Of a stretch of DNA of 64,000 nucleotides, positions 26,000 to 41,950 are shown piece after piece. This stretch comes from Niveispirillum sp. (lineage in GTDB: Bacteria > Pseudomonadota > Alphaproteobacteria > Azospirillales > Azospirillaceae): contig NZ_JAGOGJ010000006.1 in the NCBI RefSeq assembly GCF_017996735.1, positions 46,295-110,294 on the forward strand, written 5' to 3'. How positions within the stretch are numbered: the first letter of the stretch is position 1; each line of letters begins with the position of its first letter. Below the pieces are notes generated by a model, which did no database searches, had not been told where the DNA came from, and was given only the letters and a program-made list of their open reading frames with translations. Position numbers and translations under genes: made by a program.

Positions 26000-27811
26000 G
26001 TGGAAGCCATCAATGAGATGATCTTCCTGGCGGGGCTGCTGCTGTTGCTGGCCATTCTGGCCGGCCGCATCTCCTCACGCCTGGGCGCCCCGCTGCTGCT
26101 GGTCTTTCTGGGCCTGGGCATGCTGGCGGGGGAGGACGGGCCCGGCCGCATCCATTTCAGCGACTTCAAGCTGGCCTATCTGATGGGCTCCACGGCGCTG
26201 GCTGTCATCCTGTTCGATGGCGGGTTGCGCACCCATGCCGATACGTTCCGTCTGGCCCGCTGGCCGGCGCTCAGCCTGGCGACGGCAGGTGTGCTGATCA
26301 CCGCCGTGGTCACGGGGGCAATGGTCTGCCTGGTGATGGATGTCGGCTGGATGGAAGGGTTCCTGGTCGGATCGATCATCGCATCGACCGACGCGGCGGC
26401 CGTATTTTTCCTGTTGAACCTGCGTGGTCTGGCGCTGCGCGGCCGCATCTCCGCCACGCTGGAGGTGGAATCGGGCCTGAACGACCCGATGGCCGTGTTG
26501 CTGACCCTGCTGGCCGTCACCACCCTGACCACAGCCGGCAGCGTCGAACCGCTGCATCTGCTGCTGGAACTGCTACAGCAACTGCTGGGCGGCGTGGTGT
26601 TCGGCGTCGCCGCCGGCTATTCACTGGTCTGGCTGGTCAACCGGCTGGATCTGGCCGACGGGCTGTACCCGATCCTGGCCCTGTCCTTCTCCCTGTTCGT
26701 CTTCGGCGGGGCGCAGGCGGCGGGGGCATCGGGATTCATGGCCGTCTATCTGGCCGGTCTGATCCTGGGCAACCGCCCGCACAAGGCCGACCGCCTGATC
26801 CGCCGCTTCCATGACGGGCTGGCCTGGTTGGCGCAGATCGGGCTGTTCGTGATGCTGGGTCTGCTGGTCACGCCCTCGACCCTGGGTCCCTATCTGCTGT
26901 CCGGCACGCTGGTGGCGCTGGGCCTGATGCTGGTGGCGCGTCCGCTGGCCGTCTTCGCCTGCCTGCTGCCCTTCCGCTTCACCCTGACCGAACTGACCTA
27001 TATCTCCTGGGTGGGGCTGCGCGGGGCCGTGCCCATCGTGCTGGCCGCCATGCCGGTGCTGGCCGGCGTGCCCAATGCCCAGGCCTATTTCGCCGTGGCC
27101 TTCGTCGTCGTGCTGCTGTCGCTGCTGATCCAGGGCTGGACCGTGGGGCCGTCGGCGCGGCTGCTGGGCCTGCTGGCCCCGCCACAGCCGGAGCCGCCAA
27201 GCCGCGCCGATGTCGACCTGCCGGATGGGTCGGGGCAACTGGCCGTGTTCACCGTCGCCCGCGACAGCGAGGCTGCGCGGCGGGGGCGCGGCAAGCTGAT
27301 CATCCCCGAGTCGGTGCAGCTTCTGGCCCTGATCCAGAATGGCCGGCCGGTGCGGCCGGAGGATGCCAACCGTCTGCAGCCCGGCGATACCGTGTTGGCC
27401 ATGGGCGACGGATCGGCGCTGGCCGTCATGGACCGGCTGTTCGGTCGCAAGATCGAAGCCTTTGACGAGGACCGGCCCGCCGGCGACTTCCAGATCCAGG
27501 GCGACATGCCCGCCATGGCCGTGGGCGGCCTCTACGGGTTTGACGCGGGCGACGACCCGACCCAGACCCTGTCCGGCCTGATCCGCCGCCGCCTGGGCCA
27601 CGACCCCTCGCTGGGCGACCGGGTGCGGGTGGGGGAGATGGAACTGATCGTGGTCAGCCTGAACGGCAGCGCGGTGGAGGTGGTGGGTATCGACCTGACC
27701 CCGCCCGCCACGGGCTGGGCCGGATTTCGCGACCAGTTGCGGGCCTATGGCGCCCGCATCCGCCGCCGCCTGTCCCTCCCCCTGCGCCGGCAGGCCGCGG
27801 GCAGCGATTGA
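26000..27811 (+). CDS. cvrA: K+/H+ antiporter (CvrA/NhaP2) with RCK-C and CorC-like C-terminal domains
   Basis: ILFDGGLRT, STDAAAVF, LEVESGLNDPMAV, WVGLRGAVPI. Confidence 0.9.
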   Translation: MEAINEMIFLAGLLLLLAILAGRISSRLGAPLLLVFLGLGMLAGEDGPGRIHFSDFKLAYLMGSTALAVILFDGGLRTHADTFRLARWPALSLATAGVLITAVVTGAMVCLVMDVGWMEGFLVGSIIASTDAAAVFFLLNLRGLALRGRISATLEVESGLNDPMAVLLTLLAVTTLTTAGSVEPLHLLLELLQQLLGGVVFGVAAGYSLVWLVNRLDLADGLYPILALSFSLFVFGGAQAAGASGFMAVYLAGLILGNRPHKADRLIRRFHDGLAWLAQIGLFVMLGLLVTPSTLGPYLLSGTLVALGLMLVARPLAVFACLLPFRFTLTELTYISWVGLRGAVPIVLAAMPVLAGVPNAQAYFAVAFVVVLLSLLIQGWTVGPSARLLGLLAPPQPEPPSRADVDLPDGSGQLAVFTVARDSEAARRGRGKLIIPESVQLLALIQNGRPVRPEDANRLQPGDTVLAMGDGSALAVMDRLFGRKIEAFDEDRPAGDFQIQGDMPAMAVGGLYGFDAGDDPTQTLSGLIRRRLGHDPSLGDRVRVGEMELIVVSLNGSAVEVVGIDLTPPATGWAGFRDQLRAYGARIRRRLSLPLRRQAAGSD

Positions 27812-27845
27812 TCATCACGGCGACGTCATCGGTGGCGGAAAGACC

Positions 27846-29288
27846 TTAAACCGCGCCGACGCTGACATAGCTGGACACGCCCCTTATATGTTCGTCCACG
27901 GCCAACCGGTGCGACAGGGGCGGGAAGGCACGCTGGGTACAGTCCAGGCGCGGGCAGATGCGGCAATTCACGCCGATGGGCGTAGCCGCCTCCACATTCG
28001 CCAGGTCCAGGCCGTCGGCATAGACCAATTGTCCCGCATGGGCCAGATCGCAGCCGATGGCCACCGCGAACTGCCGCGCCGGCTGTTTCCAGCCGCCCCC
28101 CGGCTTTGCCACGGTCCGCACGATGGAGAAGAAGGTGGTGCCATCGGGCATGCGGGCCAATTGTGTCTGGATCTCGCCCGGACGGCGGAAGGCGTCATGC
28201 ACATGCCAGCGCGGGCAGGCCCCGCCAAAGCGGGCGAAATGGAAACCGGGGGCGGCGCTGAACCGTTTCGACATGTTGCCGGCCGGATCGACACGGGCAA
28301 AGAAGAAGGGCACACCCTTCGCCCCCGGCCGTTGCAGCGCCGTCAGCCGGTGGCAGACCTGTTCGTAACTGGCCACGAAGCGGCGCGACAGGATTTCGAT
28401 ATCGTAGCGCACCTCCTTCGCCGCCGTCAGGAACCGGCCATAGGGCATCATGATGCAAGAGGCGAAATAATTGGCCAGCCCCACCCGCGCCAGCCGGCGC
28501 GATTCCTCATGGCTGAAGGACCCGCGCGTCACGGCGGCATCCAGCAGCGCCGCCTGACCCAGCAGGGCCGCCTGGCTGGCCAGTTGGAAGGTGCGGCCCG
28601 CCGGGTCCAGCATTTCGGAGATCAGCACCCGCTTGGAATGCCGGTCATAGCGGCAGATGGCGCCGCCCATGACATCGGTCGGCATCAGCCGCACCCGCAC
28701 CCCGTGCTTTTTCAGAAGATGCGCCGCCAGAGTCCCGTAAAGATTGCCACTGTCCAGATCGCCATCGATCCACAGCGTCTCCGCCGCGATCTCCAGATCG
28801 GGGAAATGGTTCTGTTCGGCCTGGAAAAACTCCGACACCTCCTCCTGCGGGAAGGCATGGGCGCCCATGACCTGCAATTTGTCGCGGTCGGCCACCTTTT
28901 CGGCCAACCCCCCCAGATCCTCCCGCGCCTCACGATAGGCACGGTACATGGAGACGATGGCATGGCCCAGATTGGGGGCGGCGGCGGCCACCTCCTTCAT
29001 GTCCTGGGCCTTGATGTCGCCCGCCTCGAACAGCGGATCGGCAAACACCTCACGCAAGGACGCCACCAGCCTCGTCTCGTCATCCTCGGCGAAACTGGCC
29101 ATGTCGATGCCATAGACCGACGCGATCTTCAGCAGCAGCGGGACGGTCAGCGGGCGCTGGTTGGCCTCGATCAGGTTCAGGTAGCTGGGGGAGACGCCGA
29201 TCTCCTCCGCCATCTGTGCCTGGGTCATCTTCAGGTCACGGCGCAGGCGGCGGACCTTGTGGCCCAGCATGGCCTTCTTTTCCGACAT
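27846..29288 (-). CDS. Short-chain fatty acyl-CoA regulator (ScfR family; RamB-like given aceA nearby)
   Basis: N-terminal XRE HTH (SPSYLNLIEANQRPLT), YEQVCHRLTALQRPG, C-terminal CRICPRLDCTQRA. Confidence 0.9.
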   Translation of the reverse strand: MSEKKAMLGHKVRRLRRDLKMTQAQMAEEIGVSPSYLNLIEANQRPLTVPLLLKIASVYGIDMASFAEDDETRLVASLREVFADPLFEAGDIKAQDMKEVAAAAPNLGHAIVSMYRAYREAREDLGGLAEKVADRDKLQVMGAHAFPQEEVSEFFQAEQNHFPDLEIAAETLWIDGDLDSGNLYGTLAAHLLKKHGVRVRLMPTDVMGGAICRYDRHSKRVLISEMLDPAGRTFQLASQAALLGQAALLDAAVTRGSFSHEESRRLARVGLANYFASCIMMPYGRFLTAAKEVRYDIEILSRRFVASYEQVCHRLTALQRPGAKGVPFFFARVDPAGNMSKRFSAAPGFHFARFGGACPRWHVHDAFRRPGEIQTQLARMPDGTTFFSIVRTVAKPGGGWKQPARQFAVAIGCDLAHAGQLVYADGLDLANVEAATPIGVNCRICPRLDCTQRAFPPLSHRLAVDEHIRGVSSYVSVGAV

Positions 29289-29408
29289 GGATCAGCCTTC
29301 CTTGCGCGCTCAGGGTCTGGGCCTGCCATCGGGCCTGATGGTGCCGCGCGACCGCGATGCAAGCTGCCCTGGCATGGCGCGGACTCTCACGAATTTCAAG
29401 CACTTAAG

Positions 29409-29427
29409 TTGCTATGCACCATAGCAA
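29409..29427. promoter_or_regulatory. Inverted repeat TTGCTATG-N3-CATAGCAA in the regulator / TonB receptor divergent region
   Basis: Perfect 8-bp arms; a second IR, ATTTTCTG-N11-CAGAAAAT, lies at 29576-29602. Confidence 0.4.
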
Positions 29428-29681
29428 TCGCTCCAGGCCGGCGCAAGCCGACCACCAGACGCCTGCCGCCAGGCAATTCCCCGCTCTCCATCGGGATCAG
29501 GGTCCCGCACAGTCTCCTTGTTGGTACCATTATGCAATTTTGGGAACGCACGTTCCGGTACTCGTTGTTTCCTATATTTTCTGCGGTTTATAGACAGAAA
29601 ATTTTACCGACAACGTCACTTGCATTCCAATCATTAACTTGTATAATCATACTCACAAATAACAAATACAGGGAGGGAACG

Positions 29682-31925
29682 ATGCATACCCGGCTTTTGG
29701 GCGGGAGCGCGCTGGCTGTCTGCATGCTGATGCAGGGGACCCCGGCACTGGCACAGAACTCCACCGGTATCGACACGCTGGAAGAGATCATCGTCACAGC
29801 ACAGAAGCGCAAGCAGGGGCTGGCGGAAGTGCCCATCTCCATCAGCGTTGTCGGCGGGGAGGAGCTGGAGCGGGTCGGCGTCAACAAGGTTGAAGATCTC
29901 TACGCCATCGCGCCGTCGCTCTCCTTCTCACCGGCCCAGTCTTCGTCCGGGGCCGGCCTGCGTATCCGTGGCGTCGGCAGTGCCGCCTTCGGGTCGGCGA
30001 CGGAGCCCAGCGTTTCCACCATCGTCGACGGTATTGTGTCGGGCCCCGGCGGTTCCGCCCTGGTGGATTTTTTCGATGTGGAACGGATTGAAGTGCTGCG
30101 TGGCCCGCAAGGCACGCTGTTCGGCAAGAACGCCTCCGCCGGTGCGGTCAATATCGTCAGCCGTACACCGACCGATGAATTTTCCGGTTACATGAACCTG
30201 CGCTACGGCGACACGCTGGAGGCAACCCGCATCGAAGGCGCGGTCAGCGGTCCCGTCGCCGACGGGGTGAAGGCCCGGCTGTCCGGCTATCGCCTGGATC
30301 AGGGCAAGGGGCAGGTCTACAACCCCGTGCGGAAAACGGACGAGAACAAGCGCGAGCGCTGGGGTCTGCGGCTGCGCACCGATTACGAGGTGGAGGCGAC
30401 CAGCATCCAACTGATCGCGCAATATGAGGAGCAGGACAATGCCTGCTGCCGCACCAGCTTCTACGGGCTGGACCCGCGCGCCTACGGCACGCTGACACGG
30501 CTTTACCTGCTGCCCCGTCAGGCGGCCAACGGTGTCGTGCCCGGCCCGGATAACCGCCTGTCCATCGCCGACGGTCCCTTGCGGGAAGAAACGGAGACGA
30601 TGCAACTGACCGCCACGGTCAGCCACGAATTCGACAGCGGCGTCACCCTGCGCTCCATCACCGGCTATCGCACCTGGGATGAGTTGGACACGATCGATGT
30701 CGATGGCGTTGATGTGAATGTCGGCAATGATCCGCGCCAGCAGCGTGACCTGAACCTGTTCAGCGAAGAATTGCAGTTGCTGTCACCCGATGAGGGCGCC
30801 TTCCGCTGGGTTCTGGGCGCCTATTATTACCAGCATGTGCTGAAGGGCAACACGATCACGGCGGGCGGCCGGGGCACCATCCTGGGCCAGACCTCCACCA
30901 CCGGCATCGGCAAGACCACGACCCACAATTACGCCCTGTTCGCCGACGGCACCTATGATCTGGCCGAACAGTGGCAGGCCTTTGCCGGCATCCGGGGGCT
31001 TTACGAGGATCTGAGCGTCCGCTCCTACCGCAGCGGTAACTACTTCGCCTTCACGCCCGGCACGTTCCAGGGCGCCATCAAGACCGATGATACAAACTGG
31101 GTCGGCCGCGCCGGCATCCGCTTCACCCCGGAGACGCGACAGAGCTATTACCTGTCGGTGTCGCGCGGCTACAAGGGCCGGGCCATCGACAATAATACCG
31201 GCAACGTGTTTTTCCTGAACCCGGATCGGGCCGTCCTGGACCCCGAAACGGTGGTGTCCTACGAACTGGGCGCGCGCACCACCTGGCTGGATAACCGGGT
31301 GCAGTTGAATATCACCCTGTTCTACAGCGATTTCAGCGATTATCAGGCGTCCTCGTTCGATAATGTCACCTCGTCACAGATCCTCCGCAATGCCGGCAAG
31401 CTGCGCAGCAAGGGGTTCGAGGCGGATTTCGCCGTCAAGCCCTGGCAAGGCGCGACCCTGTCGGGCGGTGGGGCCTATGTCGATGCCGTGTTTGTCGACT
31501 ACAAGGGCGCGCCCTGCACATCCGTCCAGACGGCGCTACGCACCTGCCCCGTCGGCGGGCAGGACCTGTCGGGCCAGGATCTCAGCAATAATCCGCGCTG
31601 GCAGTTCAGCGTCCGTGGCCAGCAGGATTTCGACCTGACAGCCGATGCCGGCGCCTATGTCCGGGCCGAATATAACTGGCGAGACGCCGTGACCTATGGC
31701 GGTGACCTGAACCCGGCAACCCGCCAGCCCGCCTTCGGTGTGACCAATTTCCGGGCCGGTGTCAGTTTTGCGGAAGGGCAATATGAACTGTCCGCGTTTG
31801 TCGAGAATGCCTTCGACAAAAGTTATGCCCTGCGCATCTACGATTCGCCGGGCTTCACCGGTTCCTATTCGGCCTTCTTCGGTCCGTCACGGACCTGGGG
31901 CGCCGAACTGCGGGCCCGGTTCTGA
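29682..31925 (+). CDS. TonB-dependent outer membrane receptor
   Basis: SD GGGAGG before ATG 29682; signal peptide; TonB box LEEIIVTAQKR; ERIEVLRGPQGTLFGKN plug motif; terminal Phe. Confidence 0.93.
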   Translation: MHTRLLGGSALAVCMLMQGTPALAQNSTGIDTLEEIIVTAQKRKQGLAEVPISISVVGGEELERVGVNKVEDLYAIAPSLSFSPAQSSSGAGLRIRGVGSAAFGSATEPSVSTIVDGIVSGPGGSALVDFFDVERIEVLRGPQGTLFGKNASAGAVNIVSRTPTDEFSGYMNLRYGDTLEATRIEGAVSGPVADGVKARLSGYRLDQGKGQVYNPVRKTDENKRERWGLRLRTDYEVEATSIQLIAQYEEQDNACCRTSFYGLDPRAYGTLTRLYLLPRQAANGVVPGPDNRLSIADGPLREETETMQLTATVSHEFDSGVTLRSITGYRTWDELDTIDVDGVDVNVGNDPRQQRDLNLFSEELQLLSPDEGAFRWVLGAYYYQHVLKGNTITAGGRGTILGQTSTTGIGKTTTHNYALFADGTYDLAEQWQAFAGIRGLYEDLSVRSYRSGNYFAFTPGTFQGAIKTDDTNWVGRAGIRFTPETRQSYYLSVSRGYKGRAIDNNTGNVFFLNPDRAVLDPETVVSYELGARTTWLDNRVQLNITLFYSDFSDYQASSFDNVTSSQILRNAGKLRSKGFEADFAVKPWQGATLSGGGAYVDAVFVDYKGAPCTSVQTALRTCPVGGQDLSGQDLSNNPRWQFSVRGQQDFDLTADAGAYVRAEYNWRDAVTYGGDLNPATRQPAFGVTNFRAGVSFAEGQYELSAFVENAFDKSYALRIYDSPGFTGSYSAFFGPSRTWGAELRARF

Positions 31926-31940
31926 GAAAGGGGACGGACG

Positions 31941-32741
31941 ATGAACGCGAAAGGCACGATCATGACACGCCGCACCATGCTGGGCACCGCCACCGCCGCC
32001 GGCCTGTCCGCCTTGGCACCGGCCGCAATCGCCGGCGAACGGCCCATCCGGATACGGCACTATGTGCTGGCCACCCATGACATGAATTTTGTCTGCGACC
32101 AGATTTATGAAGTGCTGGGCCTGCCCGCAACGCCGAAGAAGGAGGGGCCCGGGGTCACCGAACAATATGGCTTCTACAGCACCATGATGCGGGTCGGCAC
32201 GACCATGATCGAGGTGGTGCAACCTATCAAGCCTGACCACCTGCTGAACCGCTGGTTCGAGGAGCGCGGCGGCGATGGCGGCTTCATGGTGGTCATGCAG
32301 ACCTTCGATGCCGATGCCCTGAAGGCGCGGGCGGCGGCCGAAAACCTGAAGCTGACCCGCGACATGATGTTCAAGGGCCAGCATATGCTGCAATTCGACT
32401 ACAAACATTTCGGCACGCATTTCGAACTCTACAAATACACGCCGGAGGAGGATTGGTGGGGCAATCCCCGCACCGGCCCCTATAGCGACGCCCGCGTCGC
32501 CTCCGATGTGGTGGGGGGCGAGGTGGCGGTGGAGAATCCGGAAGCCATCGCGGCCCAGACGGCGCGCCTGTTCCAGGCCCGACAGGATGGCACCAAGGTG
32601 CATTTCGAGGATCGGACCCTCAGCTTCGTGGAGGCAAAGGGCCAGTGGCGGGGTCTGGTCGCCCTGAACCTGAAGGCGCGGGAGCCCGCGCGTGTCGGCG
32701 ATTGGGCCCGCATCTGTGGCGTCAAATTCCGGTTCGTGTAA
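31941..32741 (+). CDS. Tat-exported VOC/glyoxalase-like protein of unknown function
   Basis: TRRTMLG twin-arginine signal; IRHYVLA...IEVVQP...RGGDGGFMVVMQT. Confidence 0.65.
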   Translation: MNAKGTIMTRRTMLGTATAAGLSALAPAAIAGERPIRIRHYVLATHDMNFVCDQIYEVLGLPATPKKEGPGVTEQYGFYSTMMRVGTTMIEVVQPIKPDHLLNRWFEERGGDGGFMVVMQTFDADALKARAAAENLKLTRDMMFKGQHMLQFDYKHFGTHFELYKYTPEEDWWGNPRTGPYSDARVASDVVGGEVAVENPEAIAAQTARLFQARQDGTKVHFEDRTLSFVEAKGQWRGLVALNLKAREPARVGDWARICGVKFRFV

Positions 32742-32754
32742 GGGAGCGCCGACG

Positions 32755-33462
32755 ATGAGCGAGCAGAAACCCCACCTGATCCGCCACTTTGTGCTGGCCA
32801 GCCCCGACATTGATGCCATATCGGCGCGTATCCAGTCGTTTCTGAAGGTGCCGCAGGGTCACCGCCACGACATGGGCGCCATTCTGGGCTTCCGCAATGA
32901 AATGATGATGATCGGCGAGACCATGTTCGAACTGGTCCAGCCGGTGAAGCCGGACCACCGCCTGCATCGCTGGTTCCAGGAACAGGGCGGCGAAGGCGGT
33001 TACATGATCGTCTTCCAGACCTTTGATGCCGATGCCTTCCGCGACCGCGCGGCGGCGGAGAAGCTGCGCCTGACCCGTGACATGCTGTTCCGGGGCCAGG
33101 ACATGATCCAGTTCGATCCCAAACGTTTCGGAACCCATCTGGAGACCTATCGCTATACGCTGCCCAATGGCTGGTGGGGTGACCCGGTGGGCCGCAAATA
33201 TGGGCGCAGCGAAGCAGCGTCGGAGATCGTGGCGGCCGATGTCGCCGTGAACGCCGCCCCGCCGGCGGAAATCGCCGCGCAGGTGGGGCGCCTGTTCCTG
33301 TCGCCCGTGGAAGGCGACCGGGTTCGGTTCCCCGGCAAGCAGGTACGTTTCGTACCTGCCGCCGGTCGGGCCGGGCTGGTGGCCCTGGATTTCAAGGCCA
33401 CCGATCCCTCCGCCGTTGGTCGGGTGGAGCGTATCTGCAACATGGAGTTCCGGCTGGTCTGA
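32755..33462 (+). CDS. VOC/glyoxalase-like paralogue lacking a signal peptide
   Basis: IRHFVLA...FELVQP...QGGEGGYMIVFQT; collinear with the upstream gene through the C-terminal RICxxxFRxV. Confidence 0.65.
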   Translation: MSEQKPHLIRHFVLASPDIDAISARIQSFLKVPQGHRHDMGAILGFRNEMMMIGETMFELVQPVKPDHRLHRWFQEQGGEGGYMIVFQTFDADAFRDRAAAEKLRLTRDMLFRGQDMIQFDPKRFGTHLETYRYTLPNGWWGDPVGRKYGRSEAASEIVAADVAVNAAPPAEIAAQVGRLFLSPVEGDRVRFPGKQVRFVPAAGRAGLVALDFKATDPSAVGRVERICNMEFRLV

Positions 33463-33523: not shown

Positions 33524-33916
33524 TCAGCCCTGCTTGCGCGTGATCTTCGGCACTTCGTCGCGGTAGCGGAAGCGCAGGGCCGACCAGTCATCATCCAGCG
33601 CGATCTGGGTCACAGGGATCAGCCCCTCCCGCGTCAGCCCTTCCCATCCCGCATCGCGGGAAAGATCGCTTTTGATCGTGCCGCTTTTCTTGGGATGTGC
33701 AACCCACAAGGCCCCACCGCGTTTGTAAATCGGCAGCATGCGGTCGGCGAGCCCTGCCAGGGCGGCGACATCTATCGCGAAGCCCAGCAGCAGGTCGATA
33801 TCACCGATAGGCCGTTCGACCGGTAAGTCGATGATTTTCCACATATTTTCTGGGGAATCCAACATCCAGGCCTGCTTGCCCGGCTTAAAACCCAGCTTGT
33901 CCGTGATGGTCTTCAT
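33524..33916 (-). CDS. DUF3052-like hypothetical protein
   Basis: KLGFKPG, GALWVAHPKK, SDLSRD, IALDDDWSALRFR. Confidence 0.7.
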   Translation of the reverse strand: MKTITDKLGFKPGKQAWMLDSPENMWKIIDLPVERPIGDIDLLLGFAIDVAALAGLADRMLPIYKRGGALWVAHPKKSGTIKSDLSRDAGWEGLTREGLIPVTQIALDDDWSALRFRYRDEVPKITRKQG

Positions 33917-33946
33917 AGCAAGATTCCCCGCTGTTCCGCCCGTCGA

Positions 33947-33995
33947 TTTACAAACTTTACAACATGACAGCTTTTGACATTACAGACTGTGACAG
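33947..33995 (+). promoter_or_regulatory. Candidate RamB/ScfR operator array upstream of aceA
   Basis: TTTACAAACTTTACAAC followed by further TGACA/TTACA units; 33951-33963 matches the corynebacterial RamB consensus AA/GAACTTTGCAAA at 10/13. Confidence 0.5.
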
Positions 33996-34147
33996 CAATA
34001 CTATTTTACGATAACAACCGTATTGATCATTTTATGTCTCGGGTCCATGTTCATCTCAACGGCGCTGCACTGCACACCAAACGGTGCAGAAACAAGAAGC
34101 GGCCCGCACGAGACACCAGAGAGCCCCACCAGGCCAGGAGTTGAGAG

Positions 34148-35434
34148 ATGTCCCCGTTGGACCAGACCCAGAGCATCGACCTCGCCGCCATCCACGCCAA
34201 GCGCTTTGACGGCATCAAGCGCGATTTCACGGCCGAGGATGTGCGCCGTCTGTCCGGGTCGGTGAAGATCGAGTACACGCTGGCCGAAATGGGCGCGCGC
34301 CGCCTGTGGGAACTGCTGCACACCCGGCCCTATGTCCACACGCTGGGCGCCTTCACCGGCAATCAGGCCCTGCAGCACGTCAAGGCCGGCCTGGAAGCCA
34401 TCTACCTGTCGGGCTGGCAGGTCGCGGCTGACGCCAATCTGGCCGGTCAGATGTATCCCGACCAGTCGCTGTATCCCGCCAACTCCGTCCCGGCCGTCGT
34501 GAAGCGCATCAACAATGCCTTCCAGCGCGCCGACCAGATCCAGACGGCCGAAGGCAAAGGCGACACCTACTGGTTCGCGCCGATCATCGCCGACGCCGAG
34601 GCCGGCTTCGGTGGCCCGCTGAACGCCTTCGAACTGATGAAGGGCATGATCGAGGCCGGTGCCGCCGCCGTTCACTTCGAAGACCAGCTGGCCTCTGAAA
34701 AGAAGTGCGGCCATCTGGGCGGCAAGGTGCTGATCCCGATCCAGCAGTTCATCCGCACCCTGAACGCTGGCCGTCTGGCCGCCGATGTCTGCGGCACCTC
34801 CACCCTGGTGGTCGCCCGTACCGACGCCGAGTCGGCGCAGCTGATCACCAGCGACGTGGATGAGCGCGACCATCCGTTCATCGACCGCAATGACCGCACG
34901 CCGGAAGGCTTCTTCCGCATCAAGAAGGGTGTCGGCGTCGATTACTGCATCGCCCGTGCCCTGGAATATGCCCCCTATTCCGACCTGATGTGGTGGGAAA
35001 CCTCCAAGCCGAACCTGGACGATGCCCGCCGCTTCGCCGAGGCCGTGCATAAGAAGTTCCCGGGCAAGATGCTGGCCTATAACTGCTCGCCCTCCTTCAA
35101 CTGGAAGGCCAACCTGGACGACGCGACCATCGCCAAGTACCAGGCCGAGCTGGGCGCCATGGGCTACAAGTATCAGTTCGTGACCCTGGCGGGCTTCCAC
35201 AGCCTGAACCTGGCGACCTTCGAACTGGCCAAGGGCTACAAGGAACGCGGCATGGCCGCCTATTCCGAGATGCAGCAGCGTGAATTCGCCGCCGCCGATC
35301 AGGGCTTCACCGCCGTGAAGCACCAGCGCGAAGTGGGTACCGGTTATTTCGACGCGGTGGCCGTGGCCATCTCTGGCGGTACGTCCTCGACGACGGCCAT
35401 GAAGGACAGCACCGAGACCGATCAGTTCCATTGA
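34148..35434 (+). CDS. aceA: Isocitrate lyase
   Basis: [29 protein letters not shown] signature, [22 protein letters not shown]. Confidence 0.98.
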
Positions 35435-35459
35435 TCGACATCTCAGTTACCTCAGCTTC

Positions 35460-35776
35460 GATCCGCCCTTCTTCCTGAACGGAAGGGCGGGTCCGCCGGG
35501 GGAAGGGGCTGCATCCTTTCCCCGGCTCTTGGCCCCCCAGGCTGGGACCTTTCCGCCTCCCTCCGCGCTGGATGGGAGGGGGCGGCGGAAAGCCGGCGGA
35601 CGGCGCGATGGATCGCCGACACCACCGGATCGTACCGGCCACGGGGCCCTTTCAGAACCAGATGATGGCGGGCGCTCTCCGCCATCGTCTCCGGGGTCCG
35701 GCCCGCAACCGGGCCCCGGTCTCCGATCCCAGGATGATGATCGCACCGTCTGCCCGGCGACAAGGGTGGGCGGTGC
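35460..35776 (+). ncRNA. Candidate structured RNA: tandem array of 7-8 hairpins in the aceA 3' region
   Basis: Stems at 35460-35493, 35495-35526, 35549-35592, 35593-35628, 35660-35690, 35691-35719, 35743-35776; stem mismatches in four of them are G-U on the + strand. Confidence 0.45.
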
Positions 35777-35865
35777 GTCTTCATGTCCCGCCCCCTTTAA
35801 AAAGGTTCCGTGACCCGCCACGTCCCGATCTTCCACCCTGAACCCCGACCGGAGGAGAATAGCAG

Positions 35866-36006
35866 ATGGATGGTTTTACACCCCTTGCCCTGGAAGAGGA
35901 TCAGATGCTGACGGCGGTTCCGCCGTCGCTGGTGGAGGCCGGTGAATGGGTCGCGGTGCGCGCCGGTGACAGCGCGATGATGATCTGGTTCCCCACGGGG
36001 GATTGA
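35866..36006 (+). CDS. 46-aa small protein MDGFTPLALEEDQMLTAVPPSLVEAGEWVAVRAGDSAMMIWFPTGD (below the ORF-track cutoff)
   Basis: SD GGAGGA at 35851-35856; host-like codon usage; terminator-like hairpin follows. Confidence 0.65.
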   Translation: MDGFTPLALEEDQMLTAVPPSLVEAGEWVAVRAGDSAMMIWFPTGD

Positions 36007-36043
36007 CCCTCTCCCGTTCCCCTCCCCTCCATCCCTGTTGGCA

Positions 36044-36081
36044 AACGCCCTGGCGCCCCGTCGCCGGGGCGTTGTCGTTTT
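36044..36081 (+). terminator. Terminator after the small ORF
   Basis: AACGCCCTGGCG / CGCCGGGGCGTT arms followed by GTCGTTTT. Confidence 0.6.
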
Positions 36082-36278
36082 GGCGGCTGCGTCGCCCTGG
36101 TTTATTCCAGCTCACGCCTCTTCTTGTATCTGAGGCTTACAAGTATATGACATATACAATGTTAACGAGTAAATGATTTGCCGGTCATACGACCTATCGT
36201 TAGTCTTCCGTCATTCAGCAGGAACGGGGGCGCCCCAGCGAACCGCCGCCGGTCGCCTGCCACAGGGGAGGCAAGGGA

Positions 36279-37988
36279 ATGACCGACATACTGGATATTG
36301 CGATCGTGGGCGGTGGCGTGACCGGCACCTATTGCGCCTGGCGCCTGACGGGCGAACAGGGGATCACGGGCGCCAAGGTCGCGGTTTTCGAATATAGCGA
36401 CCGTATCGGTGGCCGGCTTTACACCAAGACCATTCCGGGCATGCCCAATATCGCCGCCGAATTGGGCGGCATGCGCTATATCCCGCCCAGCGAAGGGGAC
36501 GACGCCTCCAACCAGCCCATGGTCAGCAACCTGATCGATGCCCTGGACCTGCCCTCGCACATCTTCCTGATGGGCAATCCCAAGCCGGGGCCGGACGGAC
36601 AGCCCATCGGGGAAAAGGACAACATCTTCTACCTGCGCGGCAAGCATCTGAAGATGAAGGAACAGTCCGACCCGGACAAGGTGCCCTACAACCTGTCCTG
36701 GAACGAACGCGGCAAGACGGTCAACGACCTGCAGGTCTTCGCCTTCGATCTGCTGGTACCGAAGAACCGGCGCAACTCGCTGAACGCACTGATGGAAACC
36801 ACGGTGTTCGGGCACCCGCTCTATACCTATGGTTTCTGGAACCTGATGAGTCAGACCCTGTCGTCGGAGGCCTATCAGTTCATGAAGGATGCCGGCGGCT
36901 ATGACGCCAATGTCGCCAACGCCAATGCCGTGGCCCAGTTGCCCGCCACCGAATATGCCAATACCAGCGGCTTCAAGGCCATCACCGGCGGGTATCAGCG
37001 CCTGCCCCTGACGCTGGCCGAACAGGCGGCCGCGCAGGGCGCCGACATCCGCATGAACCGCCGCATCTCCCGGATCGAACGCGACCAGGACGGTCTTTAT
37101 CTGCTGACGGTCGTGGAAACGGAAACCCAGCTTGTCTATGCCGACCTGGGCGGCCTGCGCGAGGTGACTCGGGACAAGGAAGGGGTGGAACCCAGCATCG
37201 TGAAGGCGAGGGACATCATCCTGGCCCTGCCGCGCCGGTCGCTGGAACTGATCGAATGGGTGGAATGGAAAAAGCCCGACGTGAAGGCCATGGTCGATTC
37301 GGTGCTGATCCAGGACGCGTTCAAGCTGCTGCTGGCCTATGATTATCCGTGGTGGGAGGCACAAGGCCTGGTGGCCGGCCGCTCCATCACCGATCTGCCG
37401 GTCCGTCAGATCTATTATTTCGGGACGGAGGAGGATCAGCCGCATGGGGAGAAGGGCAATACCCGTTCCCTGCTGATGGCCTCCTACAATGACATCACCA
37501 CCGTCCCCTTCTGGAAGGGTCTGGAAAAGGGTGCGCCCTTCCTGGGCCGTCTGCCTGAAGGGGTGAAGAGTGTGGCCAGGGAGCGGTCGGGGTCCGGTCA
37601 GGAAGGCACGCCCGTGCCGCTGGCCGAATGCATCGCCACCGACGCCATGGTGGCCAGCGCGCATTCCCAGATCCTGGCCGTCCACGGTCTGGTCGATGTC
37701 GATCAGCCCTATTCCGCCATCTATCACGACTGGTCGGGCGACCCGTATGGCGGCGGCTGGCACGAATGGAAGGCGGGTTTCCGCTACGACAAGCTGATGC
37801 CCGCCATCCGCCAGCCGGTGCCCGACGAACGTGTCTTCATCTGTGGCGAGGCCTATTCCAACAATCAGGGCTGGGTCGAGGGCTGCCTGCAGACCGCCGA
37901 GCATGTGCTGCTGGAGAAGTTCGACCTGCCCTGGCCCGCCTATCTGGCGCACCTGAAGGACAACCAGGCCGAGGTGCTGGGGCCGTAA
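36279..37988 (+). CDS. Flavin monoamine oxidase / L-amino acid oxidase family FAD enzyme
   Basis: IAIVGGGVTG dinucleotide fold, SDRIGGRLYT, ELGGMRY, C-terminal ICGEAYSNNQGWVEG; no signal peptide. Confidence 0.85.
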   Translation: MTDILDIAIVGGGVTGTYCAWRLTGEQGITGAKVAVFEYSDRIGGRLYTKTIPGMPNIAAELGGMRYIPPSEGDDASNQPMVSNLIDALDLPSHIFLMGNPKPGPDGQPIGEKDNIFYLRGKHLKMKEQSDPDKVPYNLSWNERGKTVNDLQVFAFDLLVPKNRRNSLNALMETTVFGHPLYTYGFWNLMSQTLSSEAYQFMKDAGGYDANVANANAVAQLPATEYANTSGFKAITGGYQRLPLTLAEQAAAQGADIRMNRRISRIERDQDGLYLLTVVETETQLVYADLGGLREVTRDKEGVEPSIVKARDIILALPRRSLELIEWVEWKKPDVKAMVDSVLIQDAFKLLLAYDYPWWEAQGLVAGRSITDLPVRQIYYFGTEEDQPHGEKGNTRSLLMASYNDITTVPFWKGLEKGAPFLGRLPEGVKSVARERSGSGQEGTPVPLAECIATDAMVASAHSQILAVHGLVDVDQPYSAIYHDWSGDPYGGGWHEWKAGFRYDKLMPAIRQPVPDERVFICGEAYSNNQGWVEGCLQTAEHVLLEKFDLPWPAYLAHLKDNQAEVLGP

Positions 37989-38048
37989 GCCGCCCCAGCC
38001 CACGCCCGCCCCCATCCTTCACCTGCAATCCTACGGGAGATGGCGTCC

Positions 38049-39773
38049 ATGAAGCCGCTTGAGCCGTTTTTCACCGTTTCCGACTATCTGATCCAGCGCC
38101 TGCATGAAGCGGGCCTGCGCGACGTCTTCACGGTGCCGGGCGATTATGTCGCCCGCTGGTTCGACTATATCGACGATAAGGACCGCAATGACGGCTACCA
38201 GTTGACCCGGCTGGGTTGCCGGTCGGAGCTGGAGGCCGGCTATGCCGCCGATGCCTATGGCCGCATCAACGGCATTTCCTGTGCCGCCGTCACCTATGGC
38301 GTCGGCGCCTTCTCATTGCTGAACCCGGTGGCCGGGTCCTATGTGGAACGTGTGCCGACGGTGGCCATTTCCGGCAGCCCGGGGACCAGCGACACCGACC
38401 GGCCCTTTGCCCGGACCTACAAGATCCTGCTGCACCATGCGACCGGCAATTACGAGGCCGACCGCAACGCCTATGAGGATATCACGGCCGAGGCCATCAT
38501 CATCAGCGACGCCAGGCAGGCGCCCGCCATGATCGATGGTGCCCTGGGCGCCGCCCTGTCGCAAAAGCGCCCTGTCTATATCGAGCTCTGGCGCCAGCTC
38601 TGGGATGCCGAATGCGCCCGGCCGGTCGGGGCGTTGACGATCCCCGCCCTGCCCGTGGATCAGGACGCCGTGAAGGCCGCCGCCGCGCATGTGGCCGGGC
38701 TGATCAAGACCGCCGCCAACCCCCTGTTCTGGGGCGGGATCGAGGTTCAGCGTTATGGTCTGCAAAGCGCCTTCGCCGGCCTGGTGGACCAGACGGGCAT
38801 CCCCTATGTCACCAGCCTGCTGGCCAAAAGCGTGCTGGCCGAAACCCATCCGGGCTTCATCGGCACCTATACGGGACCGTCGTCGGATTATTCCACCTAC
38901 ACTACCGTGGAAAATGCCGACATGGTGGTGGTCACGGGCGACCTGCTGACCGACGATTACGAAGGGTTCGTGTCCAAGGATTTCAGCCAGATGGTTGTGG
39001 CCTATGACGGCACGGTCCGGGTGGGGGAAGCCTATTATTTCCAGGTGCCGCTGGCCGCCTTCATCAGCGCCCTGTCGGACGCGCTGCAAGGTACGGGCAA
39101 GCGGGAACCCTGGGCCGTGAAAGGTCCGGCCGTGATCGACCCGGATTTTAAGCCCTTCCCGCCCGATGCCATCACCTATGCCCGGTTCTTCCAGCGCATG
39201 CTGACCTGGGTCGATGCCGACATGACCCTGGTGCCCGATGAAAGCAGCAGCATGTATGTAAGCTGCAACATCCCCGTGAACCGGGCCAATGGCTTTGTTT
39301 CCGAGGCGGCCTGGGGCAGCATCGGCTATGCCTCGGCCGCGGCGCTGGGCCTGTCGGTGGCGGCACCGGATGCGCGGCCGGTCGTGTTTGCCGGCGATGG
39401 CGGGTTCCAGATGGTGGCGCAGACGGTCAGCACCATGGCGCTGTACCGGCGCAACCCCATCATCTTTGTCATGGTCAACACCATCTATGGCATCGAACAG
39501 GCCCTGACCAATGACAAGGCCTATACCGAGGGCCAGCCCTTCAACGCGTTCAACGTCATTCCCTATTGGGACTATGCCGGACTGGCCGTGGCGCTGGGCG
39601 CCAAGGGGGTACGGGTGACGACCCTGACGGAGTTGGAGAATGCCCTGACGACGGTGAAGGCCGATCTGGATTCCGTCTGGCTGGTGCAGGTCAACCTGCC
39701 GGCCGACGACATCCCGCAGGAAATCCTGCGTCTGGCCACCAACGAACCGCCGTCGCCGCCGGCGGTGGGGTAA
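38049..39773 (+). CDS. TPP-dependent 2-keto acid decarboxylase (pyruvate/indolepyruvate/phenylpyruvate decarboxylase family)
   Basis: VPGDY, SELEAGYAADAYGR, LLHHATG, WGSIGY, GDGGFQM...VN TPP motif; ATG 38049 fits the SD better than 38040. Confidence 0.9.
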   Translation: MKPLEPFFTVSDYLIQRLHEAGLRDVFTVPGDYVARWFDYIDDKDRNDGYQLTRLGCRSELEAGYAADAYGRINGISCAAVTYGVGAFSLLNPVAGSYVERVPTVAISGSPGTSDTDRPFARTYKILLHHATGNYEADRNAYEDITAEAIIISDARQAPAMIDGALGAALSQKRPVYIELWRQLWDAECARPVGALTIPALPVDQDAVKAAAAHVAGLIKTAANPLFWGGIEVQRYGLQSAFAGLVDQTGIPYVTSLLAKSVLAETHPGFIGTYTGPSSDYSTYTTVENADMVVVTGDLLTDDYEGFVSKDFSQMVVAYDGTVRVGEAYYFQVPLAAFISALSDALQGTGKREPWAVKGPAVIDPDFKPFPPDAITYARFFQRMLTWVDADMTLVPDESSSMYVSCNIPVNRANGFVSEAAWGSIGYASAAALGLSVAAPDARPVVFAGDGGFQMVAQTVSTMALYRRNPIIFVMVNTIYGIEQALTNDKAYTEGQPFNAFNVIPYWDYAGLAVALGAKGVRVTTLTELENALTTVKADLDSVWLVQVNLPADDIPQEILRLATNEPPSPPAVG

Positions 39774-39780
39774 GCGGCCG

Positions 39781-39805
39781 GGGGCGGGCGCGAAACGCCC
39801 GCCCC
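39781..39805. terminator. Bidirectional hairpin
   Basis: GGGGCGGGCG-CGAAA-CGCCCGCCCC between convergent genes. Confidence 0.65.
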
Positions 39806-39813
39806 ACCCTTTC

Positions 39814-40236
39814 TCACACAAACAGCATCTGATCGCCGGGCCGCACCTGGCCCAGCAGGGTGACCATGCCCGTCGTCTCCACCTTCAGGTCGGGACGCAG
39901 CGCCGGTTCACGGATGCCCAGCGCGCGCCAGCCCATTTCGCAGGCCAGGAAGGTCACATCCAATTCGGCACAAGCCGTCAGCAGCTCATCGAACCTGCCC
40001 ACGCCGCGCAGGGCCAGGGTGGCGTCGCGCGCTTCCGGGCTGGTGCCATCGTCGGAGAAATCCAGACGTTTCCAGCCTTCCCCGCTCAACAGGGCGGGCA
40101 AGGCCCGGCCCGTGAAGAACAGGGTCACAGGCCGGCCCGTGGCCACGGCCGCGGCGGCCGTGACCAGGGCGTAATGCACCCGGTCATAACCGCCGGACTG
40201 CACCACCAGCACCAGCCCCCATTTACCGTCGGACAT
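39814..40236 (-). CDS. DsrE/DsrF-like family protein
   Basis: YDRVHYALVTAAAAVATGRPVTLFFTG, FLACEMG. Confidence 0.75.
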   Translation of the reverse strand: MSDGKWGLVLVVQSGGYDRVHYALVTAAAAVATGRPVTLFFTGRALPALLSGEGWKRLDFSDDGTSPEARDATLALRGVGRFDELLTACAELDVTFLACEMGWRALGIREPALRPDLKVETTGMVTLLGQVRPGDQMLFV

Positions 40237-40254
40237 TGTATGCTCCAAGCGTCG

Positions 40255-41052
40255 TTAAAACGGGTGGTGGGACAAATCCACATAGGTCGGATGGGGGCCG
40301 CAGACGGGGCATTCCGGATCGCGGCGGATTTTCACCGTCCGGAAGCCCGTCTCCAGCGCCGAATACATCAGCAGCCGGCCCGACAGGCTGTCGCCGATCC
40401 CCAACAGTTCCTTCAACACTTCAACGGCCTGAAGGCTCCCCATGCTGCCCGCCAGCGCCCCCAGAACCCCGCCTTCCGAACAGGACGGGATCATGCCGGG
40501 CGGCGGCGGTTCCCGGAAAATACAGCGGTAACAGGGGTGCGGGTCGCCCAGATGCGCCTTGAAGGTGGAAAGCTGTCCGTCAAAGCGCAGCATGGCAGCA
40601 CTGACCAGCGTCTTGGCCGACAGATAACAGGCATCGTTCAGCAGGAACCGGGTCGCGAAATTGTCCGTCCCGTCGGCCACCACGTCATAATTGCCGATGA
40701 TGTCCAGCACGTTGGACCGGTTCAGGCGGGTCTTGTGAACCTCCACCTTCACGTCGGGATTGATGGCGGCGATTCGGGCCGCGGCACTGTCCACCTTCGG
40801 CACACCAATGCCGGCCGTATCATGGATCACCTGCCGCTGCAGGTTCGACAGATCGACGACATCATCATCGACAATGCCAATGCGCCCCACCCCGGCGGCC
40901 GCGAGATACAGCAACATCGGTGCCCCCAGCCCACCGGCCCCCACGATCAGCGCGGAGGAGGAGAGCAGCTTCGACTGTCCCTCCCCCCCCACCTCGCGCA
41001 GCATGATATGGCGGGCGTAACGGTCGATCTGGCTGTCGGTGAGGTCGAGCAT
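40255..41052 (-). CDS. moeB: Molybdopterin-synthase adenylyltransferase MoeB (ThiF/MoeB family)
   Basis: RYARHIML, VGAGGLG, DDDVVDLSNLQRQ, CYRC, SCSEGG, RDPECPVC. Confidence 0.88.
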   Translation of the reverse strand: MLDLTDSQIDRYARHIMLREVGGEGQSKLLSSSALIVGAGGLGAPMLLYLAAAGVGRIGIVDDDVVDLSNLQRQVIHDTAGIGVPKVDSAAARIAAINPDVKVEVHKTRLNRSNVLDIIGNYDVVADGTDNFATRFLLNDACYLSAKTLVSAAMLRFDGQLSTFKAHLGDPHPCYRCIFREPPPPGMIPSCSEGGVLGALAGSMGSLQAVEVLKELLGIGDSLSGRLLMYSALETGFRTVKIRRDPECPVCGPHPTYVDLSHHPF

Positions 41053-41102
41053 CAGGGGTCCTCATACAATTTCCAGTGATCTTGACGGTCACTGGACTTC
41101 TC

Positions 41103-41152
41103 GCGCCGGCGCCGCCATCCGGCGGTCTGGCTCACGGCGCCATCTGGGGCGC
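41103..41152. repeat. Second, shorter copy of the scoA-scoB palindromic element
   Basis: GCGCCGGCGCCGCCATCCGGCGGTCTGGCTCACGGCGCCA; overlaps the last codons and stop of the TSUP gene. Confidence 0.65.
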
Positions 41153-41950
41153 GGCGGCGAACAGGTCGCGGAGCAGAAGATATAGGGGGTGGTCAGGCTG
41201 CGCCACCAGTCGGATAGTCATACCCAGACAGACGATCACCAGCAGCGGCCGTACCAGTTTCGCCCCGAACCGCAGGGCGGCATGACTGCCGACCCAGGCA
41301 CCGATCACCTGCGCCACCGCCATGATCAGGCCCGCCTTCCACACGATCTGTCCGCCCAGAGCGAACACGCCCAGGCTGACGACATTGCTGGTGAAGTTCA
41401 GCAGCTTGGTATTGGCCGTGGCACGCCGCATGTTCATGCCCAGCAGCGCCACGCAGCCCAGCGCGAAGAAACTGCCCGTGCCCGGCCCGAAGAATCCGTC
41501 ATAGAAACCGACGGCGAACCCCACTGTCAGGCTGAAGGCCGGCAGCGTCATGCGCGCCTTCGCCTCCACATCGCCCACACGCGGGCTGAGCAGGAAATAG
41601 ACGGCGATGGCGACCAGCAGCACGGGGATCACCGCCATCATGAAGCCGGTGCCCGTCATGCGCACCGCCATGGTGCCCGCGGCCGACCCGGCAAAGACGC
41701 AGGCCACCGTGAAGGCCATGGCGCGCAGTTCGATCTGTCCTGCCCGCCAGAAGGTGAAGGTGGCCATGGCGGTGCCGAAACTGCCCTGCAACTTGTTGGT
41801 GGCCAGCGCCGCCGCCGGCGGGATGCCCGTGGACAACAGGGCCGGAATGGTGATCAGCCCGCCCCCGCCTGCGATGGCATCAATGAAGCCGGCCAGCAAG
41901 GCGGCAATGGCCAGGAAGACCAGAAGGTCGGTGGACAGGAGTTCGGTCAA
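41132..41950 (-). CDS. TSUP (TauE/SafE, YfcA-like) membrane transporter
   Basis: AGFIDAIAGGGGLITIPAL, ATNKLQ, GFYDGFFGPGTGSF. Confidence 0.9.
   Translation of the reverse strand: MTELLSTDLLVFLAIAALLAGFIDAIAGGGGLITIPALLSTGIPPAAALATNKLQGSFGTAMATFTFWRAGQIELRAMAFTVACVFAGSAAGTMAVRMTGTGFMMAVIPVLLVAIAVYFLLSPRVGDVEAKARMTLPAFSLTVGFAVGFYDGFFGPGTGSFFALGCVALLGMNMRRATANTKLLNFTSNVVSLGVFALGGQIVWKAGLIMAVAQVIGAWVGSHAALRFGAKLVRPLLVIVCLGMTIRLVAQPDHPLYLLLRDLFAAAPQMAP

Follow-up and report, generated by a model that had tools for sequence, protein, structure and literature searches.

An oxidase-decarboxylase gene pair of Niveispirillum predicted to carry out the first two steps of the arginine oxidase pathway

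A stretch of 64,000 nucleotides from Niveispirillum sp. (contig NZ_JAGOGJ010000006.1; the whole stretch is called the window below) contains two adjacent genes, one encoding a flavin adenine dinucleotide (FAD)-dependent amino acid oxidase, P0001, and the other a thiamine diphosphate (ThDP)-dependent 2-keto-acid decarboxylase, P0002. The putative two-gene operon probably encodes the enzymes for steps one and two of the arginine oxidase pathway, which take L-arginine via 2-ketoarginine to 4-guanidinobutanal. The original prediction for this locus had proposed a transaminase-independent module that turns an amino acid into an aldehyde, and as an idea this is supported; the pair is conserved in 26 of 26 contexts.

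The two genes and their non-coding surroundings

The features of the locus, all on the forward strand, are listed below.

About 36007-39813, forward: the whole cassette, the segment missing from a congener without the pair (genome G114)
36044-36074, forward: T-run hairpin or hairpins, terminator-like (terminator scan: 12-pair stem, 9 GC, tail GTCGTTTTGG)
36140-36215, forward: conserved AT-rich non-coding block, TATG.C...TACAATGTTAACGAGTAAAT.ATTTG..GGTCATACGAC...TTAGTCT, 38-40% GC
36265-36271, forward: ribosome-binding site of the oxidase gene, GGGGAGG
36279-37988, forward: open reading frame (ORF) of the oxidase P0001, 569 residues, cytoplasmic (from the ORF listing and translation)
37976-37999, forward: 8-bp G+C stem-loop over the oxidase stop codon, without a T-run and unlisted by the terminator scan
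38049-39773, forward: ORF of the decarboxylase P0002, 574 residues (577 residues from an alternative start at 38040)
39781-39805, forward: G+C hairpin of 10 G-C-rich pairs that separates the decarboxylase gene from the convergent DsrE-like gene and probably marks the 3' end of the unit

Both ORFs lie as originally described, co-oriented and about 60 nt apart. A GGGAG motif at 38035-38039 abuts the ATG at 38040 and stands 9 nt ahead of the ATG at 38049, and the later codon is the one used by public gene calls for P0002; ATG 38049 is therefore the likelier start, which gives an intergenic gap of 60 nt. The oxidase has no signal peptide, in agreement with the original prediction, because the protein opens directly with its FAD-binding beta-alpha-beta motif (DIAIVGGGVTGTY from residue 6).

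The intergenic gap has a GC content of 72% and contains neither a promoter-like AT-rich stretch nor a T-run terminator. In several other lineages the oxidase stop and the decarboxylase start overlap by 4 nt or lie 3-19 nt apart. These arrangements support co-transcription, and we infer that the two genes form one operon. The stem-loop over the oxidase stop codon may attenuate read-through or stabilise the upstream message, and it does not look like a clear terminator. Stronger G+C hairpins of 10-12 bp, such as GGGGCGCCCG-N6-CGGGCGCCCC, are present in the oxidase-decarboxylase spacer of close relatives in Niveispirillum and Nitrospirillum (loci L001, L003, L004, L005, L008 and L028). In Hymenobacter, the spacer is 172 nt long (L025:8737-8909) and contains a long, nearly perfect inverted repeat (-89.5 kcal/mol), by its appearance an inserted palindromic element.

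The T-run hairpins at 36044-36074 close the upstream unit of aceA and a small ORF, so that the oxidase gene needs a promoter of its own. An AT-rich promoter had been predicted upstream; the AT-rich stretch is real (40% GC over 36100-36215, against 67% over the whole window), but no forward-strand promoter upstream of the oxidase was called by the sigma-70 consensus scan. Within this stretch, a block of about 75 nt (36140-36215) is near-invariant in six Niveispirillum-type loci, and the remainder of the spacer has diverged; the block is a candidate promoter and operator. TTGCCG-17-TAGTCT within it, read by eye, is only a suggestion of possible -35 and -10 elements. A sequence search found no further copies of the block in the 7.5-Mb host genome, which means that no regulon can be inferred. 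An upstream palindrome, GTATATGACATATAC, was dropped as an operator candidate, and it is not conserved in relatives. The Rfam scan of 35400-40300 yielded no riboswitch, with only two sub-threshold matches that fall on terminator hairpins.

A cis-element related to this block, GTTAACGA(G/A)..(A/T)TGATTT, precedes the pair in two genera, including Nitrospirillum (window 36140-36215; in L005, L007, L008, L009, L011 and L012, some 60-130 nt ahead of the oxidase gene). In Nitrospirillum, a second half-site, TAACG(A/C)GTAT, lies about 30 nt downstream of it. The element occurs only once in the host genome, and no regulator gene adjoins it.

The hairpin predicted downstream of the pair is present at 39781-39805. 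The whole fold of this region reaches -35.6 kcal/mol (z = -4.9), and none of 200 shuffled sequences was as stable; the hairpin was not listed by the terminator scan because its T-run is weak.

Family assignment of the oxidase and the decarboxylase

P0001 contains the Pfam domain Amino_oxidase (8e-26) with NAD_binding_8, and it is an L-amino acid oxidase (LAAO)-type flavoenzyme, as had been predicted. Among solved structures, it is best matched by 8JT7 and 8T8A (E = 3e-166, aligned residues 2-557; 51% identity), which represent PT-AROD, the L-arginine oxidase (AROD; EC 1.4.3.25) of Pseudomonas sp. TPU 7192 (PMC11694665). A native AROD has also been described from Oceanobacter kriegii, and the homologue in this species is 49% identical to P0001. 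The window protein aligns with both enzymes from end to end, with the same fold and length, and it shares with them the FAD motif, the ATEY lid loop and the carboxylate-binding arginine (GGMR). In the QGW motif, glycine and tryptophan are likewise retained; they are the equivalents of AncLLysO Gly553 and AncLLysO2 W550/A551.

The residues linked to substrate choice are also kept. The relative activities of PT-AROD are 100% on arginine, 10-18% on lysine and 2% on phenylalanine, with tryptophan activity not detected, and its arginine selectivity derives from Glu493, since the E493A variant turns promiscuous (PMC11694665). In P0001, both Glu493 (GGGWHEWKAG) and Gln350 (SVLIQDAF), in PT-AROD numbering, are present, as in the O. 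kriegii enzyme. Positions 350 and 493 are Glu and Ala in AncLLysO, a lysine oxidase, but Arg and Ser in HTAncLAAO2, which is broad-range. On these alignments, Gln350 and Glu493 separate arginine oxidases from their lysine-specific and broad-range relatives. P0001 scores 557 bits to AROD against 294 bits to a broad LAAO, and its top NCBIfam match, the tryptophan oxidase VioA, covers the FAD motif only. Judged by sequence, P0001 is an FAD-dependent LAAO of the AROD family. Within this family, it belongs to a clade of oxidases from Azospirillaceae and Sorangium (65-78% mutual identity) that is sister to the clade of the assayed enzymes.

In P0002, all three TPP_enzyme domains (N, M and C) of Pfam are found, and the nearest structures are those of indolepyruvate decarboxylase (IPDC), KdcA, PPDC and pyruvate decarboxylase (PDC), at about 30% identity (E values from 1e-66 to 1e-51). 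The domain order and the catalytic Asp, His-His and Glu agree with those of IpdC/PpdC from Enterobacter cloacae and Azospirillum brasilense, KdcA/KivD from Lactococcus lactis and PDC (30-31% identity). All 119 of the 119 homologues share the cofactor Glu, the His-His pair and the catalytic Glu; the Asp of GDY, also catalytic, and the GDG...N motif for Mg-ThDP are intact in an alignment of 12 intact oxidase-linked sequences and three references. The original assignment to non-oxidative 2-keto-acid decarboxylases of the PDC family is therefore borne out: P0002 is, as far as its residues indicate, a catalytically complete ThDP 2-keto-acid decarboxylase of the PDC/IpdC/KdcA type, in an oxidase-linked subfamily.

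Two more specific identities were rejected. As an IpdC/PpdC orthologue, P0002 falls below the equivalog cut-offs (269.8 and 269.7 bits for TIGR03393 and TIGR03394, with cut-offs of 946 and 554.5), and its identity to the IpdC/PpdC of Azospirillum, a member of the same bacterial family in which that gene occurs without the oxidase, is only 31%. As an orthologue of AruI, the 5-guanidino-2-oxopentanoate decarboxylase, it scores 109.8 bits against the model NF005712, where 500 is needed; no gene in the host genome reaches this cut-off.

A comparison of the active sites, in which P0002 was mapped onto the ten positions listed for Kp-IpdC (PMC9063327), reveals a difference in the substrate pocket. 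The position of T290 is occupied by Asp306 in P0002 (Asp in 108 of 119 homologues), and that of Q383 by Glu401 (Glu in 75 of 119, including the clades flanking the assayed and the window oxidases); the corresponding positions in the compared enzymes are T290/S286 and Q383/Q377. Additionally, A387 is replaced by Met or Leu and F388 by Tyr in the oxidase-linked decarboxylases, and all 12 intact linked sequences, but none of the three references (KdcA, IPDC and PPDC), have an insertion of eight residues after the catalytic Glu. The motif TDD[YF] is found in 107 of 119 homologues, and E-S-x-S-[LM]-Y in 64 of 120, P0002 among them. Two added carboxylates in an otherwise conserved pocket would fit a guanidinium or ammonium side chain, and P0002 is predicted to be a 2-ketoarginine decarboxylase.

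The original prediction held that the substrate cannot be read from the sequence, which now seems too pessimistic, as the AROD specificity residues and the acidic pocket point to arginine. Its suggested routes from tryptophan to indole-3-acetic acid (IAA) or from phenylalanine to phenylacetate are not supported, given the same residues and a decarboxylase that is not an IpdC/PpdC orthologue.

Conservation of the pair and structure of the cassette

The gene-neighbourhood survey that had been proposed as a check reveals an extremely conserved pairing. Besides the window, oxidase and decarboxylase genes are adjacent and co-oriented in 26 of 26 contexts from four phyla (Alpha- and Gammaproteobacteria, Acidobacteriota, Bacteroidota and Myxococcota). 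In all 17 contig loci with an oxidase of at least 47% identity and sufficient 3' flank, which span Azospirillaceae, Acidobacteriaceae, Bryobacteraceae, Planctobacterium, Marinomonas and Oceanobacter, the decarboxylase gene lies directly downstream on the same strand. The pair is likewise found in Hymenobacter, Sorangium, Nitrospirillum and two more assemblies. It also accompanies close homologues of the characterised oxidases: the oxidase of Pseudomonas sp. SDI, 78% identical to PT-AROD, overlaps the same downstream decarboxylase gene by 4 nt, and the O. kriegii genome holds the partner gene as well (locus L018). Conversely, for three decarboxylase homologues (40-41% identity) chosen regardless of their neighbours, from Pseudomonas sp. 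Marseille-P9899, Acidisphaera and a 3.6-Mb metagenome contig, an Amino_oxidase gene lies directly upstream in every case.

Presence and divergence are correlated as well. Among 130 Azospirillaceae genomes, the 14 with the oxidase all have an adjoining decarboxylase (at least 68% identity), as compared with none of the other 116, whose best decarboxylase match is the 31%-identical Azospirillum IpdC/PpdC. Across 16 loci, the pairwise identities of the oxidases and decarboxylases are correlated with r = 0.98 (Mantel test, 0 of 5000 permutations). The pairing is far beyond chance, and the unit has been inherited together in several phyla.

Endozoicomonas-type oxidase homologues (about 40% identity) have no partner decarboxylase and mark the edge of the linked family. 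One such homologue (L020:7977-9385; the contig bears the label Salinisphaera sp.) is broken into two ORFs of 216 and 271 residues and is probably a pseudogene; the proteins of this contig are 93-99% identical to those of Endozoicomonas acroporae (L021), which suggests a mislabelled or contaminant contig. Neighbours of the intact pair are lineage-specific, with SBP_bac_3, BCCT, MFS or TRAP transporters each confined to single lineages. In Marinomonas (L016:11528-14080) and Oceanobacter (L018:5975-7900), a large FAD_binding_4 protein of the vanillyl-alcohol-oxidase type adjoins the pair; the two copies are 43% identical, and the protein could be a lineage-specific enzyme for the aldehyde or an alcohol.

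In the host genus, 7 of 16 genomes have the pair. In the congener G114, which lacks it, the DNA matches the window at 33901-35993 (87.5%) and, 28 nt further on, at 39816-40246 (84.7%), and the distance from aceA (isocitrate lyase) to the DsrE-like gene is about 580 bp instead of 4.4 kb. This pattern indicates that the difference is a single indel, a 3.8-kb cassette (about 36007-39813) that spans the candidate promoter block, the two genes and the hairpin at their end. In further congeners either flank may differ, which again suggests that the cassette moves as a unit. No flanking direct or target-site repeat is visible at the cassette ends in the comparison of the window with G114. A recent transfer from a low-GC donor was ruled out, since the GC content at third codon positions (GC3) of both genes, 0.83, matches that of host genes.

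Several neighbours lie outside the cassette. A 46-residue ORF behind aceA (35866-36006) is in the region kept in G114 at 87.5% nucleotide identity, where its stop codon is 7 nt from that of the convergent DsrE-like gene. On the reverse strand, convergent to the pair, 39814-41950 encodes the DsrE-like protein (140 residues, no NCBIfam match), a ThiF/MoeB-type adenylyltransferase and a TauE/SafE permease, which may be a sulfur-carrier and export unit unrelated to the pair. Further upstream, a 1392-residue ORF at 27747-31925 is a high-GC artefact; the real gene there encodes a 747-residue TonB-dependent receptor (about 29683-31925), with a GC3 of 0.62, well below that of its neighbours (0.80-0.88). 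Two paralogous Glyoxalase_3/VOC-like genes follow it (31941-32741 and about 32755-33462).

The proposed pathway, its gap and its alternatives

Known since the 1970s, the arginine oxidase pathway is textbook biochemistry. In the proposed route, the cytoplasmic FAD oxidase would convert L-arginine, O2 and H2O to 5-guanidino-2-oxopentanoate (2-ketoarginine), NH3 and H2O2, and the ThDP decarboxylase would convert 2-ketoarginine to 4-guanidinobutanal and CO2, with Asp306 and Glu401 in its pocket receiving the guanidinium group. The decarboxylation would pull the reaction forward and forestall H2O2, which would otherwise attack the keto acid non-enzymatically. A general aldehyde dehydrogenase, with its gene elsewhere in the genome, would presumably oxidise the aldehyde to 4-guanidinobutyrate; generic aldehyde dehydrogenases are not assignable by sequence.

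The route was established biochemically for Pseudomonas putida P2 (Miller and Rodwell 1971; Vanderbilt et al. 1975, via PMC2242806). In that pathway, a flavin oxidase and then a ThDP-dependent 2-ketoarginine decarboxylase act in the sequence arginine, 2-ketoarginine, 4-guanidinobutyraldehyde, 4-guanidinobutyrate, and finally gamma-aminobutyrate (GABA) and urea, and the first two reactions are those predicted here. The P2 pathway was defined biochemically, whereas genes are proposed here. The arginine transaminase pathway of P. aeruginosa (AruH/AruI) shares the predicted second reaction and the ThDP cofactor but begins with a transaminase instead of an oxidase, and AruI belongs to an acetolactate-synthase-like branch, whereas P0002 falls in the PDC/IpdC branch; P0002 would be a non-orthologous replacement of AruI. 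In its logic (amino-acid oxidase, PDC-family decarboxylase, then aldehyde dehydrogenase, with a basic amino acid as substrate), the proposed route resembles the engineered assembly of RaiP (L-lysine alpha-oxidase), KivD and PadA that makes 5-aminovalerate (PMC7900509). That assembly is artificial, whereas the window pair looks natural and ancient.

Several observations weigh against arginine as the substrate or against the complete route. The assayed oxidases all lie outside the clade of Azospirillaceae and Sorangium, with about 50% identity between the clades. The loop two to three residues before the QGW glycine reads AYSNNQGW in P0001 and AYSYGQGW in PT-AROD. The Cys-rich C-terminal tail of PT-AROD is missing from P0001 and Cys390 is replaced by Ile, so that the inter-subunit Cys390-Cys579 disulfide of the octamer is lost, although this disulfide is a stability feature and not a catalytic one. 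The kcat/Km of PT-AROD for arginine (1.3e4 M-1 s-1) is modest, and only the 20 standard amino acids were screened (PMC11694665), which leaves room for a better, so far unscreened substrate. The hairpin between the two genes makes their co-transcription less certain. In the neighbourhoods of the pair loci, no aldehyde dehydrogenase, arginine transporter, regulator or ureohydrolase is consistently linked. Additionally, the host has a single arginase-fold gene, which is rocF-like and stands beside rocD, and other pair-positive Azospirillaceae have none or one ureohydrolase, with none in three complete genomes. The guanidinobutyrase that catalyses the canonical last step therefore lacks a candidate gene in the host and in several further genomes with the pair. 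The host gene is part of a cluster of rocD (ornithine aminotransferase), arginase and an Lrp/AsnC regulator (G000 C232:71390-74214), which indicates that the host already has an arginase route for arginine.

This gap has three candidate explanations: 4-guanidinobutyrate may be the end product of a module that mainly harvests alpha-amino nitrogen; a hydrolase of an as yet unrecognised kind may act on the guanidino product; or the preferred substrate of the window's clade may be a different basic amino acid (ornithine or lysine, for instance, which would make a ureohydrolase unnecessary) or a guanidino acid that is non-proteinogenic. A widespread, self-sufficient module with a product outside the guanidinobutyrase route is a rather unlikely form of the proposal, and it has two versions. 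The module could strip only the alpha-nitrogen from arginine, leaving 4-guanidinobutanal or 4-guanidinobutyrate for excretion, signalling or use as an osmolyte, or as feed for a novel guanidino-hydrolase; or its substrate could be canavanine or homoarginine met in plant or cyanobacterial exudates. Substrate promiscuity has been reported for rhizobial enzymes of this network (PMC7268258), a reminder that substrate shifts happen. Titles of sequence records place Niveispirillum in cyanobacterial blooms, where arginine-rich cyanophycin might, as a speculation, supply the arginine.

Among the alternatives to the arginine route, the same chemistry on another basic or guanidino substrate deserves the most attention and is a minority possibility of some weight. 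L-lysine would give 5-aminopentanal, L-ornithine would give 4-aminobutanal and then GABA, and homoarginine or canavanine are further candidates. The acidic pocket residues suit any cationic side chain, the activity of PT-AROD on lysine is consistent with such a choice, as is the limited range of the published screens, and the AruI homologue of Sinorhizobium meliloti prefers the ornithine-derived keto acid sevenfold (PMC7268258). A route from ornithine or lysine would also explain the missing guanidinobutyrase. However, Glu493 and Gln350 are the states of an arginine oxidase and not those of a lysine oxidase (Ala and Glu), and ornithine is already handled in the host by arginase and ornithine aminotransferase. 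A broad-specificity LAAO with a promiscuous decarboxylase, serving general nitrogen scavenging or H2O2 production, is improbable. Relatives in the wider family are indeed broad (the ancestral LAAOs 8jhe and 7c4k), the downstream pathway genes are not linked to the pair, and the pair is accessory within the genus. Against this stand the much higher score of P0001 to AROD, with the AROD-specific residues common to both, and a cytoplasmic location that poorly suits an H2O2 weapon; the conserved pocket positions and the correlated divergence of the two proteins, as sampled, argue for one defined intermediate.

An aromatic or branched-chain Ehrlich or auxin module, in which tryptophan would give indole-3-acetaldehyde and then IAA, or phenylalanine would give phenylacetaldehyde, is very improbable. 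The best-scoring named models for P0002 are indeed IpdC/PpdC, with IPDC, PPDC and KdcA as its matches in the PDB, VioA leads the NCBIfam matches of P0001, and the host family Azospirillaceae is plant-associated. Yet the IpdC scores are far under their cut-offs, the Azospirillum IpdC/PpdC is a distant protein that occurs without the oxidase, and the pocket positions that are hydrophobic or neutral in IPDC and KdcA are Asp and Glu in P0002. The nearest characterised oxidases barely act on phenylalanine and show no detected activity on tryptophan, and the pair is common in marine and soil bacteria that are not associated with plants. The conversion of arginine to 4-guanidinobutanal thus stays the preferred reading.

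ARODs have been studied as biosensor enzymes. In a literature search that left most subscription journals outside its reach, including the original 2016 AROD cloning paper, no report of an operon partner or a physiological role, of the oxidase-decarboxylase pairing, or of a PDC-type 2-ketoarginine decarboxylase was found. To our knowledge, the AROD oxidase has been cloned only as an analytical enzyme, and AruI, unrelated to P0002, is the sole gene for 2-ketoarginine decarboxylation that we know of.

The analysis proposes a gene for the missing 2-ketoarginine decarboxylase in a distinct PDC-family subclade, recognisable by TDD[YF] and downstream of an AROD-type oxidase in all contexts examined, which sets it apart from IpdC/PpdC, KdcA/KivD and PDC. 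Hundreds of soil, freshwater and marine genomes now carry members of this subclade under the label "indolepyruvate decarboxylase" or "alpha-keto acid decarboxylase", and those annotations, together with the auxin inferences drawn from them, are probably wrong. The findings also raise the question of the fate of 4-guanidinobutanal in bacteria without a guanidinobutyrase; if a module independent of that enzyme is real, an enzyme family that has so far been known only as a biosensor reagent would gain a physiological role. More generally, the pair would provide ARODs with a physiological context, and it would offer a template from nature for artificial oxidase-decarboxylase cascades.

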